IMG/VR virus record: IMGVR_UViG_3300033148_003000
DNA from: an uncultured virus (IMG/VR IMGVR_UViG_3300033148_003000)
Taxonomy: Duplodnaviria > Heunggongvirae > Uroviricota > Caudoviricetes
Length of the DNA stretch: 64,000 bases
Direction: 5' to 3' (one strand)
Below the pieces are notes generated by a model. That model was not told the origin of the DNA and made no database searches. It worked only from the letters and a program-made list of their open reading frames with translations. Below, one piece after another: positions 21,042-50,222 of the stretch. Both the position numbers and the translations under genes were made by a program. Each line of letters starts with the position of its first letter. Position 1 is the first letter of the stretch.

Positions 21042-21581
21042 ATGATTGATTTTAAAGAAAATATTAATGGGTTGATTTTATATTTAATTAAAAATTATGA
21101 ACATTTAACTAAAGATCAAATTCAAAAATTGTTTTATTTTTTCAATATTATTATGAAAGAAAATCTAATATTTCATGTGTACTTTTTTGGTCCATATTCA
21201 GAAATTGTTGAAAATTCAATCGATGAATTATATGTAGAATTTTACATAAATATTAAAAGAAATCGAAATAAACCAGATACATATTTTATTGATGATAACT
21301 GTTTAAACAGTCACTCACAAAGTGATAATGAAAAAGTTGATGAATTATTAAAGAAATTTATTGAAGAAAATGATTTAAGACAATTCGCAGAATTGATTGA
21401 AGTATTTAAAAATGATTTACAAAGTCCTGATGAAAAGGAATTAGGTATGGCAGCAAAATCACATTTCTGTTTAGAGAATTACAATATTAACCATGTTGAT
21501 TATAAATATTGGTCAATTACTGAAAAACAGTTAAAAAAAGCTCAAGAAATATTGGTGAAAGTTAGAGAATTGGAGAACTAA
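21042..21581 (+). CDS. Panacea/SocA (DUF4065)-YwgA-like antitoxin-type protein
   Basis: IQKLFYF..YFFGPYSE motif. Confidence 0.55.
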   Translation: MIDFKENINGLILYLIKNYEHLTKDQIQKLFYFFNIIMKENLIFHVYFFGPYSEIVENSIDELYVEFYINIKRNRNKPDTYFIDDNCLNSHSQSDNEKVDELLKKFIEENDLRQFAELIEVFKNDLQSPDEKELGMAAKSHFCLENYNINHVDYKYWSITEKQLKKAQEILVKVRELEN

Positions 21582-21584
21582 AAG

Positions 21585-21989
21585 ATGGAAAATAAATCTA
21601 TTGATAGTATGATAACCAACTATCGTGTATGGGATAAAGAAACTCGACAATTTACGTATGTAAAAATTTGGGAATTAACAGAAAAATATTTTACTGAAGA
21701 TAAATATGTGACACAATCTTGTACCAATGCTGAAGATAGTAATAATATAAAGGTTTACCAAGGTGATATATTGAAAATTACTTGGTGGAATGTAACTGAA
21801 TATTATCAAGTTGTGTGGAATCCTAAATTGTGTGGATTTAAATTTGGAGATATACCTATGGCTTGTGTATATAATTCTCCTTATAATGGTCAATTAGCTG
21901 ATGAAACATTTATTGTTGGTAACATTTTTGATAAAGATCTATATAGGCAAATTGAAAATAAAGGAAACGGGTATGATAAGGAGAAATAA
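21585..21989 (+). CDS. YopX family protein
   Basis: YRVWDK..QSCT..VYQGDIL..IVGNIFD. Confidence 0.8.
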   Translation: MENKSIDSMITNYRVWDKETRQFTYVKIWELTEKYFTEDKYVTQSCTNAEDSNNIKVYQGDILKITWWNVTEYYQVVWNPKLCGFKFGDIPMACVYNSPYNGQLADETFIVGNIFDKDLYRQIENKGNGYDKEK

Positions 21990-22169
21990 ATGGTATATTT
22001 AACAAATAGTGAACAAATTTTAAAATTATTAAAAGAATTGGGTGAAGAAATTAAATTATTATCTCAAGATGTTAAAGAAATAAAAACAAAAATAATGGAA
22101 CATGATTATGAAATAGTATGTAATTGTGATTGTGAGGATATTCGTAATTTTCATAAATGGGAGGAGTAA
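21990..22169 (+). CDS. Hypothetical protein (59 aa, below ORF-track cut-off)
   Basis: AAGGAG RBS; MVYLTNSEQ..HKWEE. Confidence 0.55.
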   Translation: MVYLTNSEQILKLLKELGEEIKLLSQDVKEIKTKIMEHDYEIVCNCDCEDIRNFHKWEE

Positions 22170-22173
22170 ATAA

Positions 22174-23001
22174 ATGATTGAAGGATTTCGAAAAATAAAA
22201 GATAGAGAATTCTGCACAGATTATAAATTTATCAAAAATCCTGCATTAAAAGTGTACATGCATGTAACAGGTCCTTATCGTTTTAATGATTCTTATAAAA
22301 TAGTTTTTGAGGATTATGTAAGTTGCCCATTTAATATCGGTAATAAATATAATATACAACAAACTCGATATATTGAAAATTCTATTTGGAATTTTTTAAA
22401 TGATATTCCATTATGTAATAGTGTAGCATCTTTTAATTACTACCATAAAACTTTACCATTAAGAGAAGATTTGAAAGCACATTTTGGTAAATATAAAAAC
22501 TGGAATTGGAAGAATTTTGCAATTAGTATTGACAAATTTATGGATAACATAAATATTGAAATATTAGAACCTCAGTCTTTTAAAGACTTATGGGAAACAG
22601 ATCCATGTTTTCAACATGAAATTAAAATGACTTGTAAATTTAAAAATCAAAAAGAAATTGTCAATAACATATTTAATAAAAAATGTAATAACGTATTTGA
22701 TAATGAATTTTTGGTTGTATTATCAAGAACTGGGTTGGAATTTTATACATCAACATATCGGGATAAATATTGTGAATATGATAGTTTTATGTTTAAAGTT
22801 GATTATAATTTTCACAAACCTGTGATTAATGTAGAAAAATTAACAAAGAAATGTGTTAGTGATTTAACCAATTTTCATTGTAAACGTGTTGGTAATTTAA
22901 AAGACCAAATAAAAATTGCTGCTAAAGAATTTGATGTATTGTATGATTGTTTTGTAAACTACCCACAAAGTGGTGATAGTTTTGTTAACAAAGGGGAATA
23001 A
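22174..23001 (+). CDS. Hypothetical protein, paralogue of 59789..60487
   Basis: Shared MIEGF, YKNWxW, DPCF and F.VDY...KP motifs. Confidence 0.65.
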   Translation: MIEGFRKIKDREFCTDYKFIKNPALKVYMHVTGPYRFNDSYKIVFEDYVSCPFNIGNKYNIQQTRYIENSIWNFLNDIPLCNSVASFNYYHKTLPLREDLKAHFGKYKNWNWKNFAISIDKFMDNINIEILEPQSFKDLWETDPCFQHEIKMTCKFKNQKEIVNNIFNKKCNNVFDNEFLVVLSRTGLEFYTSTYRDKYCEYDSFMFKVDYNFHKPVINVEKLTKKCVSDLTNFHCKRVGNLKDQIKIAAKEFDVLYDCFVNYPQSGDSFVNKGE

Positions 23002-23309
23002 TGTCTCATTATGAAATAAATGTTATAACCCAATCAGGAGAAATAACTAGATTAATAAATTTTAGTTTATGGGAAGATGTTATTGAATATATAGAGACTA
23101 ATAAAAAGGTTAATTGTGAATATTTTATAGAAGAATGGCAGGAAGATAATGAGTATTATATATCTTTTGTTAGAAGGTATGATACGCAAGGTGGTGTAAT
23201 AAACCCCACAGAACCATTTATATCAACAAAACTGAAAAGTGATGCTGTTTATCTATACATTGAAAAATCTGAATTAAAACGAATGATATCTTATAATACA
23301 GAGGTTTAG
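23001..23309 (+). CDS. Hypothetical protein
   Basis: Translationally coupled ORF. Confidence 0.6.
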   Translation: MSHYEINVITQSGEITRLINFSLWEDVIEYIETNKKVNCEYFIEEWQEDNEYYISFVRRYDTQGGVINPTEPFISTKLKSDAVYLYIEKSELKRMISYNTEV

Positions 23310-23332
23310 AAAATATCTTAAAGGAGTTTGAA

Positions 23333-23695
23333 ATGTTAATGATATCTAATATTGATTTAGAATATGGACCACCAATGAAAGAAATAGTTGAAATTACTGA
23401 GAATGAATGTAAAAAAATAAAAATTGTAATTAAATATTTATTGGAAAAAAAAGAATATTTATATTTAGGTGAAATAGAAGGTAAACATTCTCAAGTTGAA
23501 ATGGATCTTGATGAATTAAAAGGGATTGAATTTATTGATGCAGATTGTAAAGAAAAAATTGCAGCATATCATTTACTTCGTCAATATTTACCTTGTAGTA
23601 TTGTTTGTGAAAGGTTATTAGAATATTACGATGAAGAATTACCAAAAGAGTTGTCATTAGATTATGAAGATGAACCACAAATTGAGGTAGAATAA
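23333..23695 (+). CDS. Hypothetical protein
   Basis: AAGGAG RBS. Confidence 0.6.
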   Translation: MLMISNIDLEYGPPMKEIVEITENECKKIKIVIKYLLEKKEYLYLGEIEGKHSQVEMDLDELKGIEFIDADCKEKIAAYHLLRQYLPCSIVCERLLEYYDEELPKELSLDYEDEPQIEVE

Positions 23696-23697
23696 TT

Positions 23698-23886
23698 ATG
23701 TATCATGCATTGAGAATATTATTAAAAGAAAAAATCGAAAATGAAAGAAACGAGTTAACACAATTTAAAATGTTTAACACTTATGAGATGAATGATCATG
23801 ATTTAGGGTTTGCTAATGGTTATGTAAAAGGTGTTGAAGACATGACCAGAAAGGTAAACACGTTGTTATTACATTTAGATAGATAG
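23698..23886 (+). CDS. Hypothetical protein
   Basis: GAGG RBS. Confidence 0.55.
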   Translation: MYHALRILLKEKIENERNELTQFKMFNTYEMNDHDLGFANGYVKGVEDMTRKVNTLLLHLDR

Positions 23887-24233
23887 TGATTAAATAAAAT
23901 GGAAAAAGAAAATTTTAAAGATAAATTAAACACTTTTTATATACAACAATATTTAAATTGGTTAAAACATTATAACATAAATTGGGTGGATATTCAATTA
24001 TAATGGAATCTGGTGAAAAGTCTGATAGTCCGAGGATATTAAAAGAAATTGAAAAGAGAAAAGAAGTTGGGATTATATAAAGAATATGTAAAGGGAATTA
24101 CGTAAACTTTACGAAATGTCCACGGAAATACACCTCACGTTGTCTGTATTAACATGAAACATAAAATAGGTGTATTGATGACCATGTAATATAAAAGTTA
24201 GTGTAGGGTCTTAGAATGTAAAAGGAGAATTAA

Positions 24234-24518
24234 ATGTTAACAAAAATTGAAATGGAAATGAATGCTTTACGAAGAATTGTAACAAAATTAACGAAAGATG
24301 TTATTGATTTAAAACAAGAACTTGAATACGTAAAAAAGAAAGTCTTCGATTTTGAACATAAATACGATAATTTAAAAACACAACCTTTACAATTTAAAAA
24401 TACCAATCTACCTAAAGTTATTGACAAATTTGAAGTACAAGGACAAGAATATTTTCAATTAGCAGACGTTAATGACGAGTTTGATGGAATTTTTGATCAT
24501 TTAAATAAAGGTGAATAA
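24234..24518 (+). CDS. Hypothetical coiled-coil protein
   Basis: AAGGAG RBS; heptad pattern. Confidence 0.6.
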   Translation: MLTKIEMEMNALRRIVTKLTKDVIDLKQELEYVKKKVFDFEHKYDNLKTQPLQFKNTNLPKVIDKFEVQGQEYFQLADVNDEFDGIFDHLNKGE

Positions 24519-24523
24519 TTGCA

Positions 24524-24721
24524 ATGTTGGATAATATGACTATAACTAAATTTTTACTTATTGTGTATATACTTAGTGTATCTTTTATGTGTTTAATTGC
24601 TACTATATCTATAGTAAATAATGGTAAAAATCAAGCGAAATATTGTGAAATAGCATCTAATGATAGTAGATCTGAGTATGATAAATGTGTAAAAAATTTT
24701 TACAAATATATAAAGGAGTAA
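24524..24721 (+). CDS. Hypothetical membrane protein
   Basis: N-terminal hydrophobic segment. Confidence 0.55.
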   Translation: MLDNMTITKFLLIVYILSVSFMCLIATISIVNNGKNQAKYCEIASNDSRSEYDKCVKNFYKYIKE

Positions 24722-24724
24722 ATA

Positions 24725-25015: not shown

Positions 25016-25046
25016 AATTTAATTTATAAAGAAATTTTTACAATCA

Positions 25047-25075: not shown

Positions 25076-25103
25076 AAAATAAAACAAAATAAAGGATGAT
25101 TAA

Positions 25104-25859
25104 ATGTTAATAAATAAAGAAGAAAAAATAAACAAAAAATGCCCAATATGTGGGGATGTAAATCAAACTCTTGATTGTTTACAACATCTTGATGATCTTG
25201 AATTATGCAATAAATGCATAGGTAATTATATTGGATTGTTAAAAGAAAAAGATCATTACTTGTCGTTTAAAGATATTCCAATATATGAGGTAATGATAGA
25301 AAATACGGATTTTTTATTAAAAAAATATAAACAATATAATATACCAGTGATTGTAATTGAGGAGTGTATTATTTGTAACAAGAGATATTCATTAAATATA
25401 AAAGATTGGGTGTGCAATTATATTTGTACAACCTGTCAAAATAAAAAGGAAGAAAATATAAACAAAAATTTAAAGAAAATAGGTTATTCAGAAAAAGATA
25501 AATTAATTATCAAAAAATATGTAGATGAACAAATTACTGAACAAAAAGGAAAATTTAAAATGAAAAAAGTTGTAATTAAAAGTAAGTCAAAAGAAGTAAA
25601 TATTGAAAAATTTGACGTAAATAAAATATACGCATTTCAATCCACATATTCTGGTATTATTTATAAATTAAACAAAAGTAATGGTGAATATAATTTTATA
25701 ATTGTTCAAAAATCAATAGGTGTTTATGGTGATGGATGTAAAACAGGAATAGATGCATTGCGATATCTAATCAACAATTATGAAGTTGTTTATGAATTTG
25801 ACAACTTTAAAGATTTTTCACAGTGGTGTAATAAACAATCAACCGAAATGGAGTGGTGA
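25104..25859 (+). CDS. Zn-finger protein fused to a paralogue of 57317..57613
   Basis: Four CxxC pairs; C-terminal part begins MKKVVIKSKSKEVNIE..NKIYAF. Confidence 0.6.
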   Translation: MLINKEEKINKKCPICGDVNQTLDCLQHLDDLELCNKCIGNYIGLLKEKDHYLSFKDIPIYEVMIENTDFLLKKYKQYNIPVIVIEECIICNKRYSLNIKDWVCNYICTTCQNKKEENINKNLKKIGYSEKDKLIIKKYVDEQITEQKGKFKMKKVVIKSKSKEVNIEKFDVNKIYAFQSTYSGIIYKLNKSNGEYNFIIVQKSIGVYGDGCKTGIDALRYLINNYEVVYEFDNFKDFSQWCNKQSTEMEW

Positions 25860-25881: not shown

Positions 25882-26856
25882 ATGAAAGTATTATCTTTAT
25901 TTGATGGGATAGGTGGCGCAAGACAAGCACTAAAAGTTGCTAATATTCATGTTAGTAAATACTACGCATCTGAGATAGATAAATGGGCGATTTCTGTTGT
26001 TTCTAAAAATTTTCCAGATGTAAAACAAGTTGGTGATATTACCAAACTGAATTTCAACGATTATAAAGAAGTTGACTTACTTATTGGTGGGAGTCCATGC
26101 ACTGGATTTTCATCGTCTGGTAAAGGGTGGAATTTTGAAGATCCCAAATCTAAATTATTTTTTAAATTTGTGGAAGCACTTAATATTATAAACCCTAAAT
26201 ATTTTCTTTTAGAAAATGTTAAAATGAAAAAACAGTGGAAAGAGACCATCACCCAATATGTAGGTGTTAAACCAGTTATGATTAATTCTTCACTTGTAAC
26301 TGCCCAAAATCGTAAACGTTTATATTGGACTAACATACCCAATGTTGAACAACCTAAAGATTTAGGGATTATACTAAAAGATGTGTTAGAGGTTCAAAAT
26401 TTTGATGAAATTAAAAATGAAAATATTTCAGCAAGAATAGTTGGACGTAGAATAAACAAAGAAGGAAAATGTGAAGACTGTAATTCCAACTTAATTTTGA
26501 AACAATATGTAGAGGTTAATAAAAATCCTAAAAAAACAAACACATTAACAACAGTTGAAAAAGATAATATTTTGATAGACAAATTATTCATGGATACCCA
26601 AATTAGAAACAAGTCTAAAACTGTGAGAGTTGGTGGTCGTGGTAGTTATGATCGACATGAATGGGATAGTGTAGACAAAAACCATTTTAGGAAATTAACA
26701 CCATTAGAGTGTGAACGATTACAAGGGTTTCCCGATTTTTACACTGACTGTATATCAAAAACTCAACGATTTAAATGTTTGGGAAATTCTTTTACAGTTC
26801 CAGTGATTGCACATATATTAAGTTATATAAACAGAAAGGTAAAAATAGATGACTAG
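25882..26856 (+). CDS. DNA (cytosine-5)-methyltransferase
   Basis: LSLFDGIGG, GGSPC, LENV, QNRKRLYW, ERLQGFP, LGNSF. Confidence 0.92.
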   Translation: MKVLSLFDGIGGARQALKVANIHVSKYYASEIDKWAISVVSKNFPDVKQVGDITKLNFNDYKEVDLLIGGSPCTGFSSSGKGWNFEDPKSKLFFKFVEALNIINPKYFLLENVKMKKQWKETITQYVGVKPVMINSSLVTAQNRKRLYWTNIPNVEQPKDLGIILKDVLEVQNFDEIKNENISARIVGRRINKEGKCEDCNSNLILKQYVEVNKNPKKTNTLTTVEKDNILIDKLFMDTQIRNKSKTVRVGGRGSYDRHEWDSVDKNHFRKLTPLECERLQGFPDFYTDCISKTQRFKCLGNSFTVPVIAHILSYINRKVKIDD

Positions 26857-27310: not shown

Positions 27311-27312
27311 AG

Positions 27313-27536
27313 ATGTATAAATTAATAGAAAATGATGACTCCTATGGAGTCACTTAACTAATGATGGATTTTATAAAACTGAAGGAATGGAAATTAAGAA
27401 TGTTGGTGTCTTAGTAAGAACAACTAATATCAGTGGGGATTTTACAACAGTTTTTATTCCAAATGTACAATTGTGTATAATGGGTAAATATAATATAAAT
27501 AATGAATGGTATTATTGTTTGATAAAAAGTGATTAA
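27313..27536 (+). pseudogene. Small phage gene frameshifted by a 29-bp palindromic micro-insertion
   Basis: Removing the 29 bp between the two AATGATG copies (27331, 27360) restores a 64-aa ORF MYKLIENDGFYKTEGMEIKNVGVLVRTT..FIPNV..KSD. Confidence 0.7.
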
Positions 27537-29794: not shown

Positions 29795-30089
29795 TATAAC
29801 AAAATTTGACCATGATTACATTACCCAAAAGAGTAGTATTTATTAATATTTTCTATTAACCTATCGACTAATATTCAGAAATTTGTAGTATTGATATAAT
29901 TTACTACACAAATAAATGAGTATTCAGATAATTTAGTAATCATTACTTTGTAGTATTGAAATAATTTAGTAAACAATTTGTTGTGTAGTATAGATAATGT
30001 TCACTTGACACTAAGGTATCTTAGTGTATACCGAACAATAACCTTAATGTATAGTGTACACTTAACACCAACTATTTCTAAAAATTGAC

Positions 30090-30144
30090 TTAGTAGTAAA
30101 AGTGGTACCATGCAAAAATCAACTTAGTAGTGATTTTGGTACCA
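30090..30144. repeat. TTAGWA-N7-TGGTACCA tandem, cluster 1 (2 copies)
   Basis: Copies at 30090 and 30124. Confidence 0.75.
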
Positions 30145-30242
30145 TGCAAACTGGTCAATAACTGCCATGGCATGGATAATAATACACTAAACAGTCTATA
30201 TACACTATATATCATTAACTATAAGAACGATTAATTAACCTT

Positions 30243-30366
30243 CGCTTATATGCGTCTATATTAACATGTATATGTTACATGGTATGTTGTTACCTAAACA
30301 TGTTGTTAAACTTTACCAGAGACCTACAAACATCATTTAAAGACCTTTATCATATATGTGTAAAGT
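30243..30366. repeat. ~125-bp dispersed element, copy 1
   Basis: Ungapped similarity to 31510-31632 and ~37059-37149. Confidence 0.75.
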
Positions 30367-30439
30367 TAAATAAATATAAAATACTTAAAAATTGTTTTAA
30401 ATTTCTTATTAGAATTGCAAAGTTTTTAAATTTTTATTT

Positions 30440-30626: not shown

Positions 30627-31148
30627 CTATTTTTTTAAATAATGATAAAAATCATCGATGATTTCCAGACCAAACTCATTCATAAAGAATGCGTAATTTT
30701 CTAACTGTTCAAACCAGAAATTTGCACCTGTAGTTTCACCATTGATTATATTTTCAATGGTTTTATTTAAAATTTGTAGAAATATGTGTAAATATCCTTT
30801 GTTAATTTCATCATGTTTATATACACTATCAATGAGAACATCAACAGTAGTGTATACATCTTTAAGTTTATCAAGTGAAATGTTCTCATTTAAATAAACA
30901 TCACCTTCATTTATGAAGTCTATACCTACACATTTATCATCACCACATTCAAATTTAGCTCCAATTGGTTTTAAGTCTACATCAAAAATTTTACAGTCTA
31001 ATTGTGTAGCAAACTCATTATCTAGATCAAACCTATCTTGATCTATTAAATCCTTTGCATCTTTAAGCAATAAATAAGTTATACTTCTTAAATCCTTCAA
31101 TGCAAGGATTTTGTTTTCTTTTCCATACGGTGTTAATTGTACTTTCAT
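30627..31148 (-). CDS. Protein with N-terminal ribosomal L7/L12 CTD-like domain
   Basis: NKILALKDLRSITYLLLKDAKDLID resembles the L7/L12 KIxVIKxVRxITGLGLKEAKDLVE motif. Confidence 0.6.
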   Translation of the reverse strand: MKVQLTPYGKENKILALKDLRSITYLLLKDAKDLIDQDRFDLDNEFATQLDCKIFDVDLKPIGAKFECGDDKCVGIDFINEGDVYLNENISLDKLKDVYTTVDVLIDSVYKHDEINKGYLHIFLQILNKTIENIINGETTGANFWFEQLENYAFFMNEFGLEIIDDFYHYLKK

Positions 31149-31180: not shown

Positions 31181-31363
31181 TTAATCCACAATGAAATATT
31201 TTGTGCATAATTGTTTAGCAAAATTATCCTCTAGATCAAATATACGTTTATCTATTAAATTAAGCCCATCTCTTAAAGATAATCCTGTTATATTTCTTAG
31301 ATTTCTTAATGCTTCTATTCTATTTTCTTTTTCATGTTTATATTCAATTAATTTAACTAACAT
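31181..31363 (-). CDS. Ribosomal L7/L12 CTD-like protein (tandem paralogue)
   Basis: NRIEALRNLRNITGLSLRDGLNLID. Confidence 0.6.
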   Translation of the reverse strand: MLVKLIEYKHEKENRIEALRNLRNITGLSLRDGLNLIDKRIFDLEDNFAKQLCTKYFIVD

Positions 31364-31509
31364 TTAAATTACCTCCTAAAATGTGTACTTCTTGTTTATC
31401 TTCTCCTATAATAACACCTTTTATTTGTAATAGCCTGAGTATTTTCACTCATATACATATACATGACTATTTACATATACATGACTACAAATAACTATTT
31501 TATTTATAT

Positions 31510-31632
31510 CGCTCATATGGTCTTATTTTCATATTTATATATTACATGGTACGATATTACCATGTAGATAGTTAATGTTTTACTAGAACCCTGGAAATGT
31601 CATTTAAAGACATTTTAAATATATCTGTAAAG
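31510..31632. repeat. ~125-bp dispersed element, copy 2
   Basis: Core TACATGGTA-cgatat-TACCATGTA. Confidence 0.7.
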
Positions 31633-33280
31633 CTATGTTAATTTAAAGATTACTCAACAAATAAATAACTAACGTATATGTAAATGAGTGTTTTTACTCA
31701 GGTTATCGACGGTTATTCATGGTATAATAGGTATATAAGCAGGTTAAAGACAACAAAGTTTTAAACAAGTTTTCACCCAATAATAGAAAGTTAATATTAC
31801 TCGGTAACATGTAATATAAACAACCAAGCATTATATAAAATTGGTTAAGAAATCGTTACAGAAGAATTTCTAAAAAACAGAAATATTGTTCTATAAATAT
31901 TGTTCCAGTAATCTATTGTTCGTTATTAAGGATTTTAACTTTAGATATTCACAAGTATTGTATCTAAAAGTAACTAAATGTTAACTAAATGATTGAATTG
32001 TTAAGACATTTTGCCAAATTTTGGCAATTTTTCTTTAAATTTACGAACAATTAAAACATTTTAAGCAATAAAACAGTGAAGATAACTACTATGAGGGTAT
32101 TTATGTTAATCGTAAATTGTGTTGTTCGCTGAACATGTTATATTATAAAGTGTTTAAACTACAATAATAAATATTTATTTCTGATTAACAGAAATATTGC
32201 AGTTAGTATTTCCGATAATCAGAAACGCCAGAATACATATCTTTTTTTCAGTATTGTGGACTAAGAAAAGTTTTTGAGGAATATCGTTTTTGAATTATTT
32301 GTTAAGTATTATTTGTTAAGTATTACTAAAAAAAAAAAATATTTCTTAATAATTCCTTAAATAATTGTTTAAAAATTTTTCTAAAGATTTGGGCAATTTT
32401 TGTTTATTTATTTATTTATTTATTTATTTACTTTTTATTCTTATTGTTTATTTTTTTTTAATTTTGTTTTTCATTACTCTATTATATAATTATACATACG
32501 TTAGTATGTAATAATATAAACCCTTTAATATTACATGTACATGTAATATATATTATATAATATAAAGGGGTATTTTTGGATAAACGGCAAAATCTGAGTT
32601 ATCAATGGTTATACTTAGTAAACGATACTTGATTACATTTTTTGTAGGATTATTTGTCTTATTAACAATTGTTAATAATTGTTAATTGGTAAAGAAATAT
32701 TGAATAAGTAATATAAATATAAACACCAAAATGTAACCTTGATATTACTTAAGGTTAACTATTATTAATAATAATAAGAAAAATCCACCTATATTTAAAT
32801 ATAAGTGACTCCTACGGAGTTATCATCATTGGTCAGTTATAAAATAATTTTAAGTTATTGTTTAAAAATTGAAATTAACTCAAAATTGCTGCAAAGGATA
32901 ATAATCTAGTGTAAAGAACGTAATATTTGCTTCTGTTTAGGGTCCATTGTTCAAAGTAGCAACGATCTAATTTTAAACTCACATCACCTTATCACGGTGT
33001 AGTTGAGATGTCGGATTATGTCTTTTAACACATCTAAGGCTTTACAAAGATTTGATTAAGAGGTGTTATCTACTAATACATAGACCTGGTACACGTTTAC
33101 ATTTCTTAGACTCAAAGATTACTCAATAATGGGACTCAATTTTAAACCCTACTGTTACTAATAAATTTTATCCTTCATATATACTAAAACAGGTGTTTTA
33201 GGTGTTTAAGTAATGATACCTTATTGTTAAACCCTAAAATGATGTTACAAAAACTCCTACCCAAAAGTAAGAAGAAATAT

Positions 33281-33417
33281 AAAGATAGCCCTAAAGGGCT
33301 AGTATAAATTAAATTGATAAGTAGGTACCATTTGGTAAGATATTACTTGTTATTAACCCTAAAATAACAATATTTCATCATAAAAGATAGCCCTTTAGGG
33401 CTAGTATAAATTAAATT
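33281..33417. repeat. Two 35-bp palindromic direct repeats separated by 67 bp
   Basis: AAAGATAGCCCT(AA/TT)AGGGCTAGTATAAATTAAATT at 33281 and 33383. Confidence 0.8.
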
Positions 33418-33434
33418 AATATATTATAAATTAT

Positions 33435-33557
33435 CTTATATTTTAGATTTTATAATATAAGATAACTTATATTTTAGATTTTATAATATAAGTTAAATTA
33501 AGTTGAATTATCTTATATTTTAGATTTTATAATATAAGTTATCTTATATTTTAGATT
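33435..33557. repeat. 27-bp iteron-like tandem repeats (3 full, 1 partial); candidate replication origin
   Basis: CTTATATTTTAGATTTTATAATATAAG at 33435, 33466, 33512; partial at 33543. Confidence 0.75.
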
Positions 33558-33803
33558 CTTAAATATAATATTACCATGTTAGGTTAATACAAATTCAATT
33601 ATTATGTTTACTAACCAATATTGGTTAGTGTAATTCCTGTAAAGACTACTTATTGTTAAGTTTTGTAACAATTTTTTTTTTAAAATCGTCGAAAGGTGGA
33701 TGAAATCTAACTATCTACACAGTCAACAAACCTTTAATCAAACCTTCAAACCTTTTACAGTCTTTTAGAAATTAAGGTTTATATTTAGATCTATTTAATC
33801 AAA

Positions 33804-33846
33804 GTGTACAGATTTGTGTACGTGTACAGATTTGTGTACAGGTTTG
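33804..33846. repeat. GTGTACAGATTT short tandem repeat
   Basis: GTGTAC four times; GTGTACAGRTTTGT three times. Confidence 0.65.
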
Positions 33847-33891
33847 TAACTTAACAACTAAACGACTAATTTAGCCGTTTAAGTGTGTAGG

Positions 33892-34194
33892 TTAATCGTC
33901 ATCAAAGTCGTTATTTAGTGATGTCATTGTTAACACTTCCAGTCTTACACCAAAAATAAACAGCTCTATTGCTGCCATAACAGTTGACAATGAGTATAAA
34001 CCTTTTGAATATAAATACACCCCAATAGGTGTACTTTCCCTTAAATCGTTGTAGCTAAATCTATAGACATCATTCAAATACGGTCTATAAATTTCACCAT
34101 TTGAGATGTCTTTCAAATTGAGTTTTTCTCTTTTAACTTGGTTTAATTTAAAATATTGTTTAAAATATTGTTTAACTTGTCCTAATAAAACCAT
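33892..34194 (-). CDS. Hypothetical protein
   Basis: AGGAG RBS. Confidence 0.6.
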   Translation of the reverse strand: MVLLGQVKQYFKQYFKLNQVKREKLNLKDISNGEIYRPYLNDVYRFSYNDLRESTPIGVYLYSKGLYSLSTVMAAIELFIFGVRLEVLTMTSLNNDFDDD

Positions 34195-35228: not shown

Positions 35229-35660
35229 TTAAACCTCCATTTTGTCAATTGCTGGAAATGTTAAAAATTGATAATTTTCCACCTTTTTAGGTATTTTACT
35301 TAATTCACAAATTAAAAAACCTTCTTTGATTTGTTGTAAACTGTTTTTGTCGTTTTTATTAAGTGTGAAAGTAATTTTATATTGATTGTGATATGCGACC
35401 AATGAGGTTGATTTTAATTCATTAGTTAAGTGACTCCAAGAGTCATCATTACTCATTTGTTTCAATTCTTCAATTATACCCATTTCAGATATAACGCCAC
35501 TAAGAACGTTTTCATGTTCTAGATTGATGATTCTCAAATCATATTTCAACTTTTTAATTTTGTAGTATTTCAATTCATTATGAATACTAAAATTATCAAT
35601 GTTTCTAAATAATAAAGACATATTAAGTATTTCATCAACAGTTATTTCAGTATTTTGCAT
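35229..35660 (-). CDS. Hypothetical protein carrying a 27-bp in-frame micro-insertion
   Basis: ORF; insertion at 35419-35451. Confidence 0.6.
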   Translation of the reverse strand: MQNTEITVDEILNMSLLFRNIDNFSIHNELKYYKIKKLKYDLRIINLEHENVLSGVISEMGIIEELKQMSNDDSWSHLTNELKSTSLVAYHNQYKITFTLNKNDKNSLQQIKEGFLICELSKIPKKVENYQFLTFPAIDKMEV

Positions 35661-36763: not shown

Positions 36764-37058
36764 TTTTTTAACCTTTCTGTTTAATGTACCTCTTTAACTG
36801 TTCTCATGTTATCATTTCCACATTGAAAAATAAACCCTTTTATGATAGAACCTTTAATATAACTTAACAACGACGTTAACACGTTCCAGTTAACTATTTT
36901 CAGGTCAATAATTAAAAAAATTCACAAATTAATTTTCTCAAAAATTTAAACTTTTTGACTATGATTAGGTATACAGTCATAATTAAATTAAGAATGGTTT
37001 AATCATCAACAATAATTGGATTCATAATATTTACTCCTCTTAGATTGTAAAACAACTT

Positions 37059-37149
37059 CTCTTAGAAAGGGCTATTTTGCAATTATTTATTTACATGGTG
37101 TATTATTACCTAAACATACTGTTAAACTTTACCAGTGACCTACAAACAT
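37059..37149. repeat. ~125-bp dispersed element, copy 3 (truncated)
   Basis: 37091-37149 matches 30275-30333 at 53/59 nt with no gaps. Confidence 0.75.
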
Positions 37150-37426
37150 TAAATCCGTCGATGTTTGTTGAAAGTCTTCTGAGAGTAATTATAGATATTA
37201 TATATTACATTTTACATATATACACTATTATTATTATTCAATATTTAATTATATGTATAGTATACCAAAAATTTACTAAACATTTAAATAAGTATTGGAA
37301 TAATTTACTAAACAAACATTTAATATACACAAATAAATGACTACACAAGTAATTGAGTAGTCAAATTTTTGGTGTATCTAAATATTGTCTATAAATTCAA
37401 TTTAAAAATAAAATCAATAAATTGTC

Positions 37427-37490
37427 TTAGAACCGAAGGTGGTACCAATTTTTTTAGCAATAAATTGTCTTAGAAGTAAAGTTGGTACCA
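37427..37490. repeat. TTAGAA-N7-TGGTACCA tandem, cluster 2 (2 copies, 43-bp period)
   Basis: Copies at 37427 and 37470. Confidence 0.75.
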
Positions 37491-37511
37491 AAATTTTGGG
37501 TTAAATTAAGT

Positions 37512-38804: not shown

Positions 38805-39158
38805 TTAAATGGTTATAAACGGTAAATAATAGTTATGGTACTTTTGTAAACAATTTATTGTTTCATCAATCCATGGTGTTTTAATATGTAAATGACACTG
38901 ATCAAGTTTTTCTGTTTCCTCATTTTTTAAGTAAAAACTATACCTTATATAATCTTTAATTGGTTTATCTTGTTGTAAATAATATTCTTTCGTTATTTTA
39001 TCAACCATAACCGCATAACTCCACCTAATATTGTCTTTAACATTGCCCTTGTCTTTGGTAAATACTAAACAATTATCATCACATACATCTAATTTAAGTT
39101 TAAAACCATATTTAGTAAAATATTCAATAATTGTTTTATTTAATGGGGTTTCTAACAT
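38805..39158 (-). CDS. Hypothetical protein
   Basis: GAGGAGG RBS. Confidence 0.6.
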   Translation of the reverse strand: MLETPLNKTIIEYFTKYGFKLKLDVCDDNCLVFTKDKGNVKDNIRWSYAVMVDKITKEYYLQQDKPIKDYIRYSFYLKNEETEKLDQCHLHIKTPWIDETINCLQKYHNYYLPFITI

Positions 39159-43509: not shown

Positions 43510-44520
43510 CTAAATAAGAGGTAATAAGGCTTGAACCGCCTTTTGTTTCAAAGAATTACCAGAACCAAATAGAACCTTGTGAGTTCTACCAGGTGAACTC
43601 GTTACTTGTGAAGGGTTTAGACCTCGATAGTAATCAGCATAAAGAGTAACAGCATTTAAAACACCCCATGCGGTATCTTTTGTTGATTCCATTTGTTGAC
43701 CTTTACCGTTATAGTAGAGATAGTTTAATAATTTTACAGTTTCTCTTTTATTTTTGTTGATATCTTCAATAGTATTGTATTGTACTTTGTCATCATAACC
43801 AATAATTGATTCAAAAATTTGATGTCTTTCAGAAGTATTAACTTTAGTTTGTGACAATTTATTACAAAAACTTTCAAAGTTGGACCATTTTTCTTCAATT
43901 AAACCCATTTCAACTTTAACGGTTTCAGGTTTAAATTGGTTGAGATGATTAACTTTAATCACATGATCATGAGATTCTTTATCTAATGATAGTGTTAACG
44001 TGTTATTACAAACAACTCTAATTGATGTCACTTGACATGTTGTCGCAAATGAACCATCATATGATGTAGATAGTAACAAATAACCATTTACTTGATCACC
44101 ATCCTGTAAAGTGAAATTTAAAGGTAGTTCGGCTAAACCCCATACTTTTTTACCTTTTAGCAATACACCTGCGGTGTTCATTTTAAACCCCAAGTCTTTT
44201 ATTAAAGACTCAAAAAAGAAAATGATCTCTTTAGGTTGCACAACATTGTATCCTAAAGAAACAATCCCTAATTCCTCAAAATTATCATCTCTAAATAGAA
44301 CCTTTTTGTTTTTAGATGTTGCCAGCTTTGGGGTGTCTACATTATCACCAATATTATATTGTATAGGTGATTCTTTAACAGTGTAGTTTAATCCTGATTG
44401 TTGTAACCATATTTCTAATGGTTGTCCTTCAACCATTTTTTGGCCTAAACCATGCCATGGTTTAGCATTTGTGTATGCAACCGCTGCAAACTTTTTACTG
44501 AAATCTAATTCATGAGCCAT
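43510..44520 (-). CDS. DUF932 (phage/plasmid TIGR03299-like) protein
   Basis: MAHEL..PWHGLG..YNVVQP..TAGVL..LLLSTSYDGS..IRVVCNNTL..TAWGVLNAVT. Confidence 0.9.
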   Translation of the reverse strand: MAHELDFSKKFAAVAYTNAKPWHGLGQKMVEGQPLEIWLQQSGLNYTVKESPIQYNIGDNVDTPKLATSKNKKVLFRDDNFEELGIVSLGYNVVQPKEIIFFFESLIKDLGFKMNTAGVLLKGKKVWGLAELPLNFTLQDGDQVNGYLLLSTSYDGSFATTCQVTSIRVVCNNTLTLSLDKESHDHVIKVNHLNQFKPETVKVEMGLIEEKWSNFESFCNKLSQTKVNTSERHQIFESIIGYDDKVQYNTIEDINKNKRETVKLLNYLYYNGKGQQMESTKDTAWGVLNAVTLYADYYRGLNPSQVTSSPGRTHKVLFGSGNSLKQKAVQALLPLI

Positions 44521-46541: not shown

Positions 46542-46551
46542 AATTTACCTC

Positions 46552-46818
46552 TTATTTTACTAAATCATTTAATACCGATATTAAATCTTTTGTCAACCTT
46601 TCATGTTCTTTTATGTAAAAACTATACGGTTTATCTAGGTATATTTTTTCTAAAAATTCTTTTGTAGGTTCTTTAGATTTGATAAATTTTTCAACAATCC
46701 ATTGTATTTTATATAACATATATGCAGTATTTTTAATTTTTTTAGTATTGTAAATAATCATTTTAACACCTTTCTTATTTAATAAACTAAATGTTGAGGA
46801 AATAACCCATACATACAA
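46552..46818 (-). CDS. Hypothetical protein
   Basis: ORF track; internal MIIY start likely. Confidence 0.5.
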   Translation of the reverse strand: MYVWVISSTFSLLNKKGVKMIIYNTKKIKNTAYMLYKIQWIVEKFIKSKEPTKEFLEKIYLDKPYSFYIKEHERLTKDLISVLNDLVK

Positions 46819-47021
46819 CTTGTTTTTTGAAATGTTTTTTTCTTACCATTTGTATAATAAGATAATAAATACGATTTAATCTGTGTGTCAATTATTGAAT
46901 TTAATAATTGTACATCGTATGTTAAATCTAAATAAGAAATATCTTCATTGTTGTATTTACCTTCTGTTTTTTCTACTCTTGTGATTATTTTATCTAAATC
47001 TATTTCTAATATAAAACCCAT
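46779..47021 (-). CDS. Hypothetical protein
   Basis: AAAGG RBS; own promoter. Confidence 0.55.
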   Translation of the reverse strand: MGFILEIDLDKIITRVEKTEGKYNNEDISYLDLTYDVQLLNSIIDTQIKSYLLSYYTNGKKKTFQKTSCMYGLFPQHLVY

Positions 47022-47051
47022 TTAATAACCTTTCTTATTTACTACACCTTT

Positions 47052-47080
47052 ACTATAAACCCTAATGAAATAAAAAACAA
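47052..47080 (-). promoter_or_regulatory. Early-type sigma70 promoter
   Basis: TTGTTT-17-TATAGT with upstream TGTAAC box. Confidence 0.6.
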
Positions 47081-47217
47081 CCTCTTTTTATTAAACTGTT
47101 ACAATTGGTAACAACCATCTTTGGATTTTTAATAATTAAAAACATGTATATTAATATACATATATATGCTAATTTTAATATTCAAATTTACATAACTTTA
47201 CATTTAAAGATTTACAC

Positions 47218-47246
47218 TTGACATTCATTTGATTATAATTTATAGT
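47218..47246 (+). promoter_or_regulatory. sigma70 promoter facing the non-coding repeat block
   Basis: TTGACA-17-TATAGT. Confidence 0.7.
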
Positions 47247-47409
47247 TATATTAGATTAAAAACGGAACTTTGAAAATAGAATAAAGAAAGTGAGGACACC
47301 ATGCGACTCTTTTTTAATTGAGTTTATTATTAAAAAGGTATAAATATTATTTACAATATTTATCCCTTCAAAATTTATTTAAAAATAAAAATTTTCTAAT
47401 ATACCCCTT

Positions 47410-47556
47410 TTAGAACTACGACTGGTACCAAAATTTTTCAGTAAACACCTTTAGAAGTCCGACTGGTACCATGTATCATAACCAGTAATTTGTCTTTAGA
47501 ACTAGACCTGGTACAAAAATTTTCAGTAAACTGTCTTTAGAACTGTAAGTACACCA
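47410..47556. repeat. TTAGAA-N7-TGGTACCA tandem, cluster 3 (4 copies)
   Basis: Copies at 47410, 47451, 47496, 47537 (last degenerate). Confidence 0.8.
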
Positions 47557-47589
47557 AAATTTTTATAATAGATACCTCTTATGTTAATA

Positions 47590-47619
47590 ACACCCATTTT
47601 TAAAAATGGGTGTCTTTTT
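47590..47619 (+). terminator. Intrinsic terminator, possibly bidirectional
   Basis: Perfect palindrome ACACCCATTTTTAAAAATGGGTGT followed by CTTTTT. Confidence 0.7.
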
Positions 47620-47779
47620 ATTTGTTAATACTATTAGATACAATAAACTAATATACACATAATTAATAAACCTATCCCTACAATAAGTTGTAAATATTCT
47701 TAAAACCATTGTGTAAATTTGTTAAATAATCTTTCAGTTAATATTTCAATTTTAGTTTTACGGCATTCAAATCACCTTT

Positions 47780-47885
47780 AATAGCCTGGGGGTATTTGGT
47801 GGGTGTATGTGGATTATAAACAATAGCCTGGGAGTATTAAAATGGTTGTAGGGGTTTGTAAACCATTGGTTAATAGACTGGGGTT
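47780..47885. repeat. AATAGCCTGGG motif cluster
   Basis: Copies at ~47780, 47822, 47872; first is near-identical to 37800-37822. Confidence 0.7.
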
Positions 47886-47911
47886 AATAATTAGGGTGTT
47901 GATAACCAAAA

Positions 47912-48358
47912 TTAAAAACTTCCTTTATGTGAGTCCCATGAATAATCTTCCTCATTTTGAGGGTTACTATCACCAGTTGTATGATAACTATTGTAAGGTC
48001 TGCTATTTTTATAAATTTTCTTTAAACCTTTTATTAATGAAATTTGGCCTTTTGTTGCATTTTTATTTATTTCGATATCATTTATTAATTTTTGTATTTC
48101 TCTTCTTTTTTTATTTGTCATAGTGTATTTAAGTAATTTATTTAAATCATATAAATATAATCTATAAATACTATATTGTTTAATCATTTTTTCAATTAAT
48201 TGTTTTTGTTTATTTGAAACTTTTTGATTTTGTAATAAATTTTTTTGTATACATAAAATTTTTCGTTGTTCTTTAGGTCTTACTGTTTTGACCAATAATT
48301 CATCTAATTTATGTAAGTAGTATCCTAACATTTTATCTCCTTTGTTATTAATAAACAA
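47912..48358 (-). CDS. Hypothetical basic protein
   Basis: GGAG RBS suggests start at 48331. Confidence 0.5.
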   Translation of the reverse strand: MFINNKGDKMLGYYLHKLDELLVKTVRPKEQRKILCIQKNLLQNQKVSNKQKQLIEKMIKQYSIYRLYLYDLNKLLKYTMTNKKRREIQKLINDIEINKNATKGQISLIKGLKKIYKNSRPYNSYHTTGDSNPQNEEDYSWDSHKGSF

Positions 48359-48364
48359 GAACCT

Positions 48365-48634
48365 TTACAAATAAACAGGTTTCTTATCTTTGATGGTGGT
48401 ATCAATAACGATCTTTAATTCAGGATAAACCTTATTAATGAGAAATTTAACAAAATTCACTTGATTTTCACTAATACCCCAATAGGTTAAATCACCATGA
48501 CCGCTCTTATAATATTCTGTTTCTATATATAACCCATTTACTTTACACAATCTTGTAATTTTATTTACATCACAAGTTAAGTTGTACAAGTCATCATCGT
48601 CTATATATAAAATATAAGTAGTTAAATCATTCAT
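48365..48634 (-). CDS. Hypothetical protein
   Basis: ORF in operon. Confidence 0.6.
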   Translation of the reverse strand: MNDLTTYILYIDDDDLYNLTCDVNKITRLCKVNGLYIETEYYKSGHGDLTYWGISENQVNFVKFLINKVYPELKIVIDTTIKDKKPVYL

Positions 48635-48878
48635 GTTTATTTACCTTTAATTCATCTTTTATTGCATTTAAAATTTTATCATCATGAACTATATTATCTA
48701 ATAATGCCCAAGTTTTTAAATTATATTTTGTTAATATATCATAAAATTTATTACATATTTTACATTGAAATACAACATGTACGTAACCTATAGTACTATT
48801 ATAACCTAAACAATCATTTAAAACAATATGTTTAAATTTCTTATTTAAACATTTACATTTTGGTTTATTATTTGTCAT
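48627..48878 (-). CDS. Hypothetical Zn-binding protein
   Basis: CKC..CKIC. Confidence 0.55.
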   Translation of the reverse strand: MTNNKPKCKCLNKKFKHIVLNDCLGYNSTIGYVHVVFQCKICNKFYDILTKYNLKTWALLDNIVHDDKILNAIKDELKVNKHE

Positions 48879-49084
48879 TTTCGATTCTTCTTCCTTAATA
48901 TATTTTTAAATTCTTTTATCAATGTTTTAACTTTATTTATTTCTTCTATTATTTCTCGATCCACAGGGTTTAATCTTTCTAGATTAAATTTATCAAAATT
49001 ATCAATATACCCTATGATAAACCCAATAATAAAACCCACAGTAAATGATGTAATTATTATTACAAGTAATTCAAATATCTCCAT
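48875..49084 (-). CDS. Hypothetical membrane protein
   Basis: N-terminal hydrophobic segment. Confidence 0.55.
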   Translation of the reverse strand: MEIFELLVIIITSFTVGFIIGFIIGYIDNFDKFNLERLNPVDREIIEEINKVKTLIKEFKNILRKKNRK

Positions 49085-49315
49085 TTAAAATTCTCCAGGA
49101 TCTTCATAAAGTTCTTTTAATTTTGACCACAAGTTATATTTTTCAATCAATCCCAACACCAAATCCCAAATAACGGTTTCGCTATTTTCACTAGCTCTTA
49201 TTCCCAGTATTCGATTCTTGTGTTCTAAATACTCAATATGAGAACATTTATTCCCCTTTGAATTGACATCAAGATTTTCTAATGATTTATTATAATCACT
49301 GTTACTTCTAACCAT
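49085..49315 (-). CDS. Hypothetical protein
   Basis: GGGAG RBS. Confidence 0.55.
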   Translation of the reverse strand: MVRSNSDYNKSLENLDVNSKGNKCSHIEYLEHKNRILGIRASENSETVIWDLVLGLIEKYNLWSKLKELYEDPGEF

Positions 49316-49361
49316 ATTAATTCATCTCCCTTTATTTCTTAAACCAATCTTTAATTTACAT

Positions 49362-49640
49362 TTACTTTAAATCAAAATCAACAATTTGAGAAAATACCTT
49401 ATCAAAATACAAACAATATTCATCACATAATTTTCCAACATCTGATGATTTATCTATATTGAGTTTTTTTATTGAACCATATTCATCAATATTGTTATTA
49501 ATTATATCTAAACTTTTTTCCAATTTATCGTGAACGTTTTCACATTCTTCTCGTGATTGATAAAATACTCGTTCATAAATACACTCCCATGAATCATCAT
49601 ACTCTCCACCAAATAATTCAATTCCATATATTTTAGTCAT
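49362..49640 (-). CDS. Hypothetical protein
   Basis: ORF in operon. Confidence 0.6.
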   Translation of the reverse strand: MTKIYGIELFGGEYDDSWECIYERVFYQSREECENVHDKLEKSLDIINNNIDEYGSIKKLNIDKSSDVGKLCDEYCLYFDKVFSQIVDFDLK

Positions 49641-49901
49641 CTAACTCATCCTCGTTACATATCCATTACTACAACAATCACCATTACATCTCAAAGATTG
49701 ACAAGGAAATTCATTACAATCTGAAGGAAACGGACATTTGATAGATCGGCAATCTTTATCTTTTGTAATTTTTAAAACGTGTTCAACAAGTTTTGGATAT
49801 TTAGCTGTAAAATTTACCACCAAATAAAACAAATCCCCAAAATCCAAAACATATTTACCATCATATTTTATTTCTTTTGTATATGAACCGTATTTATTCA
49901 T
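49641..49901 (-). CDS. Hypothetical Cys-rich protein
   Basis: AAGGAG RBS. Confidence 0.55.
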   Translation of the reverse strand: MNKYGSYTKEIKYDGKYVLDFGDLFYLVVNFTAKYPKLVEHVLKITKDKDCRSIKCPFPSDCNEFPCQSLRCNGDCCSNGYVTRMS

Positions 49902-49925
49902 TTATTCTCCTTATTATTTACATTA

Positions 49926-50222
49926 TTAATAATTACTTAACCACCAATTTTTAAATTGTTCCCATATAGTTGGTTTAATTGAATCTTCATCACTATTTAA
50001 ACAGTTATCATCACTTTGTGAGTGACTCGAAGAGTTATCAACAAAATATTTACAATTATTATCTTTATTAATACATCGACAAAAATCATTATATTTTATA
50101 CTAGGAGGATATAAATAATCACCAACAATATTTTCACTCACCCAAGCATTCTTACATAGGCAATTATTAGTATATTTCATCATGTATAAATATTTACAAT
50201 TTTGACAATATACTCTATTCAT
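49926..50222 (-). CDS. Hypothetical Cys-rich protein carrying a 30-bp in-frame micro-insertion
   Basis: CQNCKY..NKDNNCKYF; insertion at 50003-50040. Confidence 0.6.
   Translation of the reverse strand: MNRVYCQNCKYLYMMKYTNNCLCKNAWVSENIVGDYLYPPSIKYNDFCRCINKDNNCKYFVDNSSSHSQSDDNCLNSDEDSIKPTIWEQFKNWWLSNY

Follow-up and report, generated by a model that had tools for sequence, protein, structure and literature searches.

Very small palindromic repeats, probably a form of selfish DNA, copied into unrelated genes of a phage

Identification of the repeat family

A 64,000-nucleotide stretch of the uncultured virus IMGVR_UViG_3300033148_003000 (the window in what follows, 64 kb of a contig of about 165 kb that has 165,479 bp in the protein collection) carries seven copies of a hairpin-forming repeat of about 30 nt, five of which were described in the original prediction and two of which are newly found here. 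The family is real and statistically solid, and chance is excluded as its source. Its copies have been copied as DNA into places that are unrelated to one another, the units inside genes are biased towards lengths that keep the reading frame, and the copies stack and decay. The elements have the look of selfish DNA inserts that are among the smallest known, and they are probably a new, very small form of in-frame palindromic selfish DNA, found here in a phage. How they would have moved is a more tentative matter and is taken up after the evidence on the repeats themselves.

When five copies were aligned, the columns that never vary made up the core TGAT-R-ACT-(palindromic centre)-AGTCACT-Y-A. 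Between ACT and AGT stands a centre of 5–8 nt, which is palindromic in every full copy and varies in both length and sequence. The inverted repeat is internal (ACT...AGT, extending to T-R-ACT/AGT-C-A) and the termini are direct TGAT words, with TGAT standing 1–4 nt 5′ of the stem in all seven copies and unit sizes running from 18 to 34 nt. The layout first proposed for the family is corrected here to the form above, and the family is enlarged from five members to seven.

The pattern TGATGAYWACTN{6,14}AGTCACT matches the window twice and has no match in any of 100 shuffles, and the pattern AGTCACTYAMMWAR has 4 matches against a shuffle mean of 0.06, with none of the 100 shuffles reaching 4. Equal frequency in shuffled sequence had been named beforehand as an outcome that would speak against the family, and for these strict patterns the two frequencies are far apart. 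The original prediction had also proposed a covariance-model scan, and a model built from five copies and run over both strands (128 kb) places those copies at 40.7–47.1 bits, as it must by construction, with nothing else in the window above 14.5 bits. A head-plus-tail scan that allowed no mismatch in the head and at most 1 in the tail returned 6 matches against a shuffle mean of 0.13. One of the sequences passing this filter is the candidate copy 7, whose covariance score taken alone (14.5 bits, the next best after the five; E 0.5) is not significant. A looser two-box pattern with 1 mismatch per box was unspecific (6 matches; shuffle mean 1.63, maximum 6). Of the 247 12-mers (with a G+C of at least 4) that recur at distant sites of the window, the 80 commonest revealed no other family like this one.

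Anatomy of the copies

Subfamily A consists of copies 1 and 5a, which share the tail CACTCACAAAGTGAT. Copy 1 (21293..21326, plus strand, 41.6 bits) is made up of TGATAACT, a 14-nt perfect palindrome ACTGTTTAAACAGT and that tail. It lies in frame in the open reading frame (ORF) 21042-21581, which encodes the protein P0001, at about residues 84–95 (DDNCLNSHSQSD), and it is flanked by TGATAA at 21293-98 and 21323-28, 30 nt apart. Copy 5a (50010..50040, minus strand, 41.5 bits) combines the A tail with a centre, CTTCG, near that of copy 4, and is in frame in ORF 49926-50222, where it reads DNSSSHSQSD; the flanks of copy 5 are TGATAACT repeats 30 nt apart. Head-to-tail after 5a comes the tail-less copy 5b (49990..50010, minus strand; TGATAACTGTTTAAATAGTGA), an 18-nt unit that is also in frame (DDNCLNS). 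It equals the head and centre of copy 1 with 1 mismatch in the palindrome and is without the 12-nt CACTCACAAAGT, which is exactly the 12 nt between two AGT words.

Subfamily B is formed by copies 2 and 4, with the tail CACTTAACTAATGA. Copy 2 (27333..27365, plus strand, 47.1 bits) reads TGATGACTCC-TAT-GGAGTCACTTAACTAATGAT, is a 29-nt unit between AATGATG repeats, and breaks a small gene. Copy 4 (35418..35448, minus strand, 40.7 bits) is a 27-nt unit between TAATGA repeats and is in frame in ORF 35229-35660 as NDDSWSHLTN. Copy 3 (32793..32825, minus strand, 41.0 bits) lies in an ORF-free stretch at 31.4–33.9 kb and is a mosaic, with an A-type head followed by a B-type centre and the start of a B-type tail, diverging after CACTTA and having no 3′ TGAT; it is preceded by AACTGACCAATGAT, which by eye matches the A-type tail at 14 of 18 positions. 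The candidate decayed copy 7 (48570..48596, minus strand) reads TGATGACT-TGTACA-ACTTAACT-TGTGA and is a 24-nt unit in frame in ORF 48365-48634 (DDDLYNLTCD). Its head matches at 8 of 8 positions and its B-type tail has 1 mismatch, and AGTC is absent. As for the five copies already described, their positions, the spacing of their flanking repeats (30, 29, 27 and 30 nt at copies 1, 2, 4 and 5) and their frames (copies 1, 4 and 5 in frame, copy 2 frameshifting, copy 3 in no ORF) were all confirmed.

Every one of the seven copies lies on the transcribed strand, the non-coding copy 3 included. With the exception of 5b, their G+C of 0.30–0.39 is above the 0.23–0.26 of the surrounding 600 nt. Stacking is seen in the tandem of 5a and 5b, and decay in 5b and 7. 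Flanking direct repeats of 6, 7, 6 and 8 nt are found at copies 1, 2, 4 and 5 and none at copy 3. These repeats overlap the conserved ends, and since they lie inside the conserved TGAT-containing sequence they need not be target duplications.

At 39066-39077 on the minus strand, a further small gene contains GATAATTGTTTA, which encodes DDNCL and agrees with the head and centre of copies 1 and 5b at 10 of 12 bases; the agreement may be due to chance or to the extreme decay of a copy.

Copying as DNA and reading frame

The genes that host the repeats had been described as unrelated, and an all-against-all BLASTP of the 464 ORFs of the window agrees, since it returned 7 related pairs and none of them involves a repeat-host gene. 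Copies 2 and 4 share runs of 11 and 19 identical bases and copies 1 and 5a a run of 18, and the exact 18–19-nt runs between copies contain not one synonymous difference. Every copy with the rare codons CAC (relative synonymous codon usage, RSCU, 0.34), AAC (0.47) or GAC (0.31) retains them, and the same repeat sequence is found out of frame in copy 2 and outside any ORF in copy 3. Unrelated hosts combined with long exact runs of DNA, rare codons among them, mean that the segments were copied as DNA and did not arise as a convergent peptide. The copies have a common origin at the DNA level, and a convergent peptide motif is very unlikely as their cause.

Measured from the first TGAT to the next TGAT or TGAA, the six in-gene units are 30, 29, 27, 27/30, 18 and 24 nt long, so that five of the six are multiples of three (binomial p about 0.02, calculated by hand). 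Of the seven copies, five sit in ORFs that are intact, one breaks up a gene and one is in non-coding DNA; positions within the host genes are arbitrary (codons 7, 13, 62, 70 and 84). The predicted translation is a hydrophilic stretch of 6–10 residues with the form D-D/N-x-x-x-S-H-x-x-x-D/N. The earlier claim that the elements add loops of 9–10 amino acids to proteins is supported in so far as the segments, read in frame, would add about 8–10 residues.

Subfamily B has stops in five of its six frames, and subfamily A is open in two or three. That subfamily B is open in only one frame of six explains the orientation and frame in which it is found within genes. Because frame and orientation inside genes follow from selection, they say little about mechanism. 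Only the non-coding copy 3 is free of frame constraint, and it runs in the same direction as the others.

Hairpin structure

Four of the seven stem pairs are invariant and two change on both sides, so the original claim that the hairpin arms covary stands for two pairs, but thinly, as both changes are confined to copy 1 and the same covariation score is attained by 23 of 500 shuffles. The centre of copy 1 stays palindromic through these 2 compensatory changes. When the elements were folded as single-stranded DNA, copy 2, which has a 7-bp stem, and copy 4 clearly beat their shuffles (z −4.2 and −3.3). The element has one main hairpin; a second, 5-bp stem (TCACT/AGTGA) is possible in subfamily A and mismatched in subfamily B. 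The base of the stem and its flanks are fixed and the top of the stem is free. Conserved half-sites are 5 to 8 nt apart, a variable spacing that argues against a dimeric operator in duplex DNA and favours recognition of a folded strand.

A search of Rfam gave no match at gathering score and 3 irrelevant matches at E ≤ 1. Several other candidates were compared by eye and rejected, namely a C/D-box or K-turn (no CUGA partner), a hammerhead core (no GAAA after the stem), a dimeric operator (half-site spacing varying from 5 to 8 nt), a −1 frameshift at copy 2 (no slippery heptamer), a bulge-helix-bulge intron (no pairing across the junctions) and a linker-scanning artefact (GTTTAAAC in copy 1 only).

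The small gene interrupted by copy 2

The small host gene of copy 2 (27313..27536, plus strand) opens with an ATG at 27313, runs for 14 codons (MYKLIENDDSYGVT, then a stop) and goes on in another frame for 65 codons (27339-27536). The ATG comes after the stop of the preceding gene and has AGGA at 27301-04, 8 nt upstream; judged by this context the start looks genuine. Frame 1 closes inside the element, and the second frame ends at 27536, 15 nt before the next gene (27552). The database gene call for this locus is a 49-aa product that starts from an internal Met, with AGGA directly against that ATG. Omitting the 29 nt of copy 2 would join both frames; this follows automatically from a 29-nt unit and is no independent evidence. 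The simplest reading of the locus is a truncated accessory gene.

Origin of the repeats

We tentatively read the family as selfish, gene-less micro-hairpins of about 24–34 nt that are moved in trans, and give this reading somewhat less than an even chance. The unit would be a hairpin with a conserved stem base (T-R-ACT / AGT-C-A), a TGAT on its 5′ side and a 3′ tail ending in TGAT or TGAA, and it would be copied as DNA into unrelated places of the genome. Insertion would take place next to a TGAT word, and with the inserted piece ending in the same word, apparent duplications would result. The folded single strand would be recognised by a protein supplied in trans; our first guess is a HUH/Y1-type enzyme whose gene lies in another part of the genome or in the host, because REP/RAYT and IS200/IS605 ends likewise combine a conserved stem base and conserved flanks with a stem top and loop that are free to vary. 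Selection would then remove the copies that break needed genes, and the survivors inside genes are indeed almost only those with lengths divisible by three. Speaking for this reading are the non-random family in unrelated host genes, the exact runs that extend to synonymous positions, the palindromic centre kept by compensation in copy 1, the excess of in-frame lengths, the G+C above that of the surroundings and the genuine-looking start of the gene broken by copy 2. The original prediction of a tiny mobile or REP-like element holds as far as related palindromic segments have spread as DNA in unrelated genes, but its mobility and its targeting of TGAT could not be upheld in the same way.

What weighs against micro-hairpins moved in trans comes from sequence collections, from the host proteins, from the elements themselves and from the enzymes encoded in the window. 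The family is private to this phage, as far as IMG/VR, JGI and GTDB go. The A tail and the full pattern each have 0 matches in IMG/VR, and the B tail has 2 loci there, both of them coding look-alikes without the hairpin. The JGI metagenome contigs hold 5 loci, all of them hairpin-less and 4 with a G+C of 39–52%, and the GTDB genomes hold 2, likewise without it. With the motif absent from these collections bar hairpin-less chance matches, they give no sign of spread beyond one genome. An empty site was seen nowhere in the phage records, IMG/VR or the protein collection. The only close homologues of P0001, P0003 and the copy-2 ORF in a collection of 5.8 billion proteins are the window's own proteins, and tblastn found no homologue of P0002 or of the copy-7 host in 50,697 phage records.

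For P0001, an exhaustive HMMER search recovered 13 distant homologues, members of a family in which a YGPYS motif is invariant and the proteins are some 180 residues long; among 13 aligned proteins, one has a weak match to the SocA/Panacea domain. Twelve of the 13 homologues were used in the alignment, and P0009 (1512 residues, matching only 25) was left out. The repeat motif is in none of the 12, a point in favour of the tentative reading. There is no gap opposite the element in 10 of them, and the closest homologue (33% identity) is colinear and ungapped, with no identities from about residue 76 to 100. Given these ungapped homologues, a plain 10-residue insertion is not visible. Two findings on P0001 favour an insertion. 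Out of 170 sliding 10-residue deletions of P0001 scored against a hidden Markov model of the 12 homologues, the best was that of residues 84–93, the element itself (89.2 vs 87.4 bits), but the gain is only 1.8 bits and much of 82–112 lies within about 2 bits of full P0001. The AlphaFold model of P0001 has a mean predicted local distance difference test (pLDDT) score of 84.5, and its only stretch below 50 is residues 89–92, between a beta-hairpin (70–84) and a helix (93–109). Taken together, the alignment, the deletions and the model make the element segment a dispensable and probably disordered loop, which is short of a proven insertion. The model of P0003, made without an alignment, had a mean pLDDT of 33.2 and was unusable.

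In the elements themselves, copies 1, 3 and 5a fold no better than shuffles (z −0.9, −1.8 and −0.4), and all of the covariation comes from copy 1. A fixed staggered cut would not leave direct repeats that range from 6 to 8 nt and fall on the element's own conserved ends, as these do. Overall, the segments use codons in an ordinary way (mean ln RSCU of 0.24, background 0.32), and a foreign origin marked by codon usage was rejected on these values, which do not set the segments apart. Pfam found no Y1/HUH, RAYT, IS110, other transposase, recombinase or reverse-transcriptase domain in the 108 ORFs scanned, and PF01797 has no match in the window.

The earlier remark that no transposase is visible holds for transposase domains in these ORFs but overlooked a TnpB/OrfB_IS605 relic at 19096..19347 on the plus strand. 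It is 83 aa long, and its first 47 residues match HTH_OrfB_IS605, the TnpB N-terminus (E 2.7e-13), with the rest missing; tblastn confirmed it with TnpB/InsQ genes in 15 phage records at 32–44% identity. Near this relic there is no repeat-like sequence or hairpin (no covariance-model match in 18.9–19.6 kb, and 7 inverted repeats unlike the element), a further point against the tentative reading. The relic tells us that a hairpin-dependent IS family once entered this genome, which speaks for the tentative reading, and nothing more. An unusually G+C-rich stretch (about 19270–19330) follows it, just upstream of the gene for the CCA-adding enzyme, and the region from 19096 to about 19450 may be a decayed IS605-family element.

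Alternative explanations

It is possible to account for the repeats without an enzyme, by template switching or microhomology-mediated insertion of patches at TGAT(R)A words during recombination-dependent phage replication, in which case the hairpin would only be a stalling or slippage-prone structure and the direct repeats would be the microhomologies used. The flanking repeats of 6–8 nt, identical to the element's own ends, are in keeping with this, and so are the partial and mosaic copies (5b without exactly the 12 nt between AGT words, 7 without AGTC, and 3 with its A head and B centre) and the lack of a transposase in the 108 ORFs. We nevertheless consider such a process rather unlikely, as it leaves the invariant stem base and flanks with their compensated stem top unexplained, and also the existence of a single family, with no second among the 80 commonest of the 247 recurring 12-mers, when TGAT-type words are very common in the window. 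A cis-acting hairpin in mRNA or DNA is more doubtful again. A factor of the phage or of the host would recognise it (an endoribonuclease, a translational repressor or a nicking enzyme, for instance), and the genes carrying it would be co-regulated. Such a role agrees with a conserved stem base and flanks below a variable stem top, with the retention of rare codons and with the presence of all seven copies, including non-coding copy 3, on the transcribed strand; it is hard to square with arbitrary positions in genes (codons 7, 13, 62, 70 and 84), with a copy 2 that destroys its gene, with the decay of copies 5b and 7, and with hairpins of which three in five are no stabler than shuffles and which belong to no Rfam family at gathering score, the matches at E ≤ 1 being irrelevant.

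Translational bypass of the byp or T4 gene 60 kind was also considered, with take-off at GAU/GAC in copy 2 and landing on a GAU 26–29 nt downstream, by which the small gene would be made whole. Matching Asp codons do stand either side of the copy-2 gap, GAC lies in the 5′ arm of the 7-bp stem (GACUCC/GGAGUC, in copy 2 only), and the next codon, UCC, is rare (41/16027), yet decodable. The gap holds an in-frame UAA, the gene has a good ribosome-binding site, and an RF-1-domain protein and an L7/L12-like protein are encoded in the window. GAU/GAC pairs and 'hungry' codons occur in gene-60-type cassettes, according to 10.1101/2022.08.31.505936. Even so, no stop codon adjoins the take-off codon, the nascent chain at that point counts only 9 residues, which rules out a signal from the nascent peptide as in gene 60, and the distance from GGAG to the landing codon is 13 nt instead of about 6. 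Bypass would be superfluous in the other five in-gene units, which are open, copy 4 is without an Asp landing codon, and a broken accessory gene is simpler; we regard bypass as highly improbable. We would give just as little weight to a combined scheme, in which the smallest element moved by a HUH-type enzyme (one hairpin plus a 4-nt word, about 30 nt, adjoining TGAT) would occur together with a byp-like hop from GAU/GAC to GAU, unrelated to the T4 gene 60 cassette, that would let the gene at 27313-27536 tolerate its 29-nt copy. Lastly, a shared peptide motif or a low-complexity acidic/serine linker, with the DNA similarity a by-product of coding, would fit the likeness of the translated segments (D-D/N-x3-S-H-x3-D/N) and the recurrence of DDNCL, with 10 of 12 bases matching, at 39066-39077 in a further small gene. 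This explanation is already disfavoured and has very little chance of being right, given the exact 18–19-nt runs without synonymous differences in unrelated genes, the same sequence out of frame in copy 2 and outside ORFs in copy 3, and the palindromic centre of every full copy.

If units of 18–34 nt really insert, as in the reading of selfish micro-hairpins moved in trans, they would be at the lower size limit of mobile DNA. Phage genes would then be seeded with selfish hairpins, as Rickettsia and yeast mitochondrial genes are, leading to new protein loops or to knockouts. The repeats would also be a source of small in-frame indels in phage proteins, and would offer a handle for finding the enzyme that recognises so minimal a substrate.

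Genomic context

The window has a G+C of 25–33% across its 64 kb and no tRNA genes. Its ORFs are tightly packed in three blocks, with strand switches near 17.8 kb and 28.6 kb, and an ORF-free gap of about 2.5 kb (31400–33900) lies on the minus-strand side of the 28.6-kb switch. A Shine-Dalgarno-like word precedes 60 of 86 long ORFs, compared with 228 of 2447 of all ATGs. Few of the genes are recognisable. They include a protein that weakly matches the tail-sheath C-terminus (9570-12002), a CCA-adding tRNA nucleotidyltransferase (19582-20982), a C5 DNA methyltransferase (25882-26856) and a DUF932 protein (43510-44520), and a YopX-like protein, an RF-1-domain protein and an HD protein are also encoded. 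We read the source as a very divergent tailed phage. No relatives were found among the 50,697 phage records (megablast of 8 kb; tblastn of the sheath-like protein, P0002 and the copy-7 host), and IMG/VR gave no related loci with P0001 or P0004 as queries and 1 distant locus, at 31% identity, with the CCA-adding enzyme.

The RF-1 (peptidyl-tRNA hydrolase / release-factor) domain belongs to a 156-aa protein at 56874-57344 on the minus strand (E 1.1e-17). From its sequence it looks ArfB-like, and it would be a phage-encoded ribosome-rescue or termination factor. A 173-aa protein (30627-31148, minus strand) matches the ribosomal L7/L12 C-terminal domain over its first 40 residues at the Pfam cut-off (26.0 vs 25.9 bits), and the adjoining 60-aa ORF (31181-31363, minus strand) is 52% identical to its N-terminus. 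Two paralogous pairs stand on opposite arms of the window, 22174-22998 (plus) with 59792-60490 (minus) at 31% identity and 25104-25856 (plus) with 57320-57613 (minus) at 45% identity.

Other repeats occur in the non-coding parts of the window. The ORF-free gap at 31400–33900 contains tandem repeats at 33405-33558 whose starts are 31 and 46 nt apart, and a G+C-rich hairpin, AAAGATAGCCCT(A/T)(A/T)AGGGCTAGTATAAATTAAATT, is present there twice, at 33281 and 33383. Repeat families of 34–94 nt (D1, D4, D6, D7, D10 and D11) are common to the non-coding stretches 29870-30380, 31507-31647, 37056-37500 and 47397-47564, and many of these repeats hold GGTACC-type words. The 34–94-nt repeats may be promoter or regulatory cassettes, or small RNA genes.

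Comparison with known systems

We found no description of in-frame palindromic micro-inserts in phage genes in the open-access literature searched. The family has traits in common with several systems and is not a member of any of them, be it Rickettsia palindromic elements (RPE), yeast GC clusters, REP/RAYT, IS200/IS605 derivatives or MITEs (miniature transposable elements with inverted repeats). REP elements are short imperfect hairpins with a conserved tetranucleotide (GTAG) at the foot; they are extragenic and G+C-rich, and a RAYT gene is present in the genome. Elements of the IS200/IS605 family insert 3′ of a fixed short word without a true duplication, and their right end resembles that word; their derivatives need a different hairpin at each end and measure at least about 100 nt. 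The repeats in this phage resemble REP/RAYT and IS200/IS605 ends in having a single short imperfect hairpin with a conserved tetranucleotide, a fixed polarity, a conserved stem base and a free top. Unlike REP, they have TGAT as their word instead of GTAG, five of the seven copies are in intact genes, and no Y1 enzyme was found in the 64 kb, and unlike the IS200/IS605 derivatives (PATE) they have one main hairpin and not two different subterminal ones. MITEs usually fall in the range of about 50–500 bp. Bacterial examples of 190–235 bp with terminal inverted repeats are given in PMC10969869, and our repeats are like these MITEs in being non-autonomous and multi-copy, in having direct-repeat flanks and in lying sometimes in genes; unlike them, they have an internal palindrome, direct repeats as termini and units of 18–34 nt.

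The palindromic GC clusters of yeast mitochondrial DNA are described in PMC4478555 as short palindromes, G+C-richer than an AT-rich genome, with putative short target duplications, with merging, stacking and shuffling, and with no known enzyme to move them, and the same traits are found here in a G+C of 0.30–0.39 against 0.23–0.26, in short flanking repeats, in the tandem of 5a and 5b and in the mosaic copy 3. GC42, an organellar cluster of 42 nt, has a mobility known from population data (PMC4478555), whereas our repeats are known from the sequence of one genome. The byps of Magnusiomyces mitochondria, which 10.1101/2022.08.31.505936 describes as GC-cluster derivatives that lie in genes in any frame and are bypassed by the ribosome, are like our repeats in their location within genes and unlike them in the skipping, of which nothing here gives a sign. 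With RPE, which PMC10969869 places in bacterial chromosomes at about 150 bp, the difference is one of length and setting, as the repeats here are 18–34 nt, about five times smaller, and in a phage. With that difference in mind, both are gene-less palindromes that lie in frame within unrelated coding genes, where they encode a conserved peptide, and that are also found between genes (PMC10969869), and in this phage the trait shows in the five of six in-gene units that keep the frame of their predicted translation.

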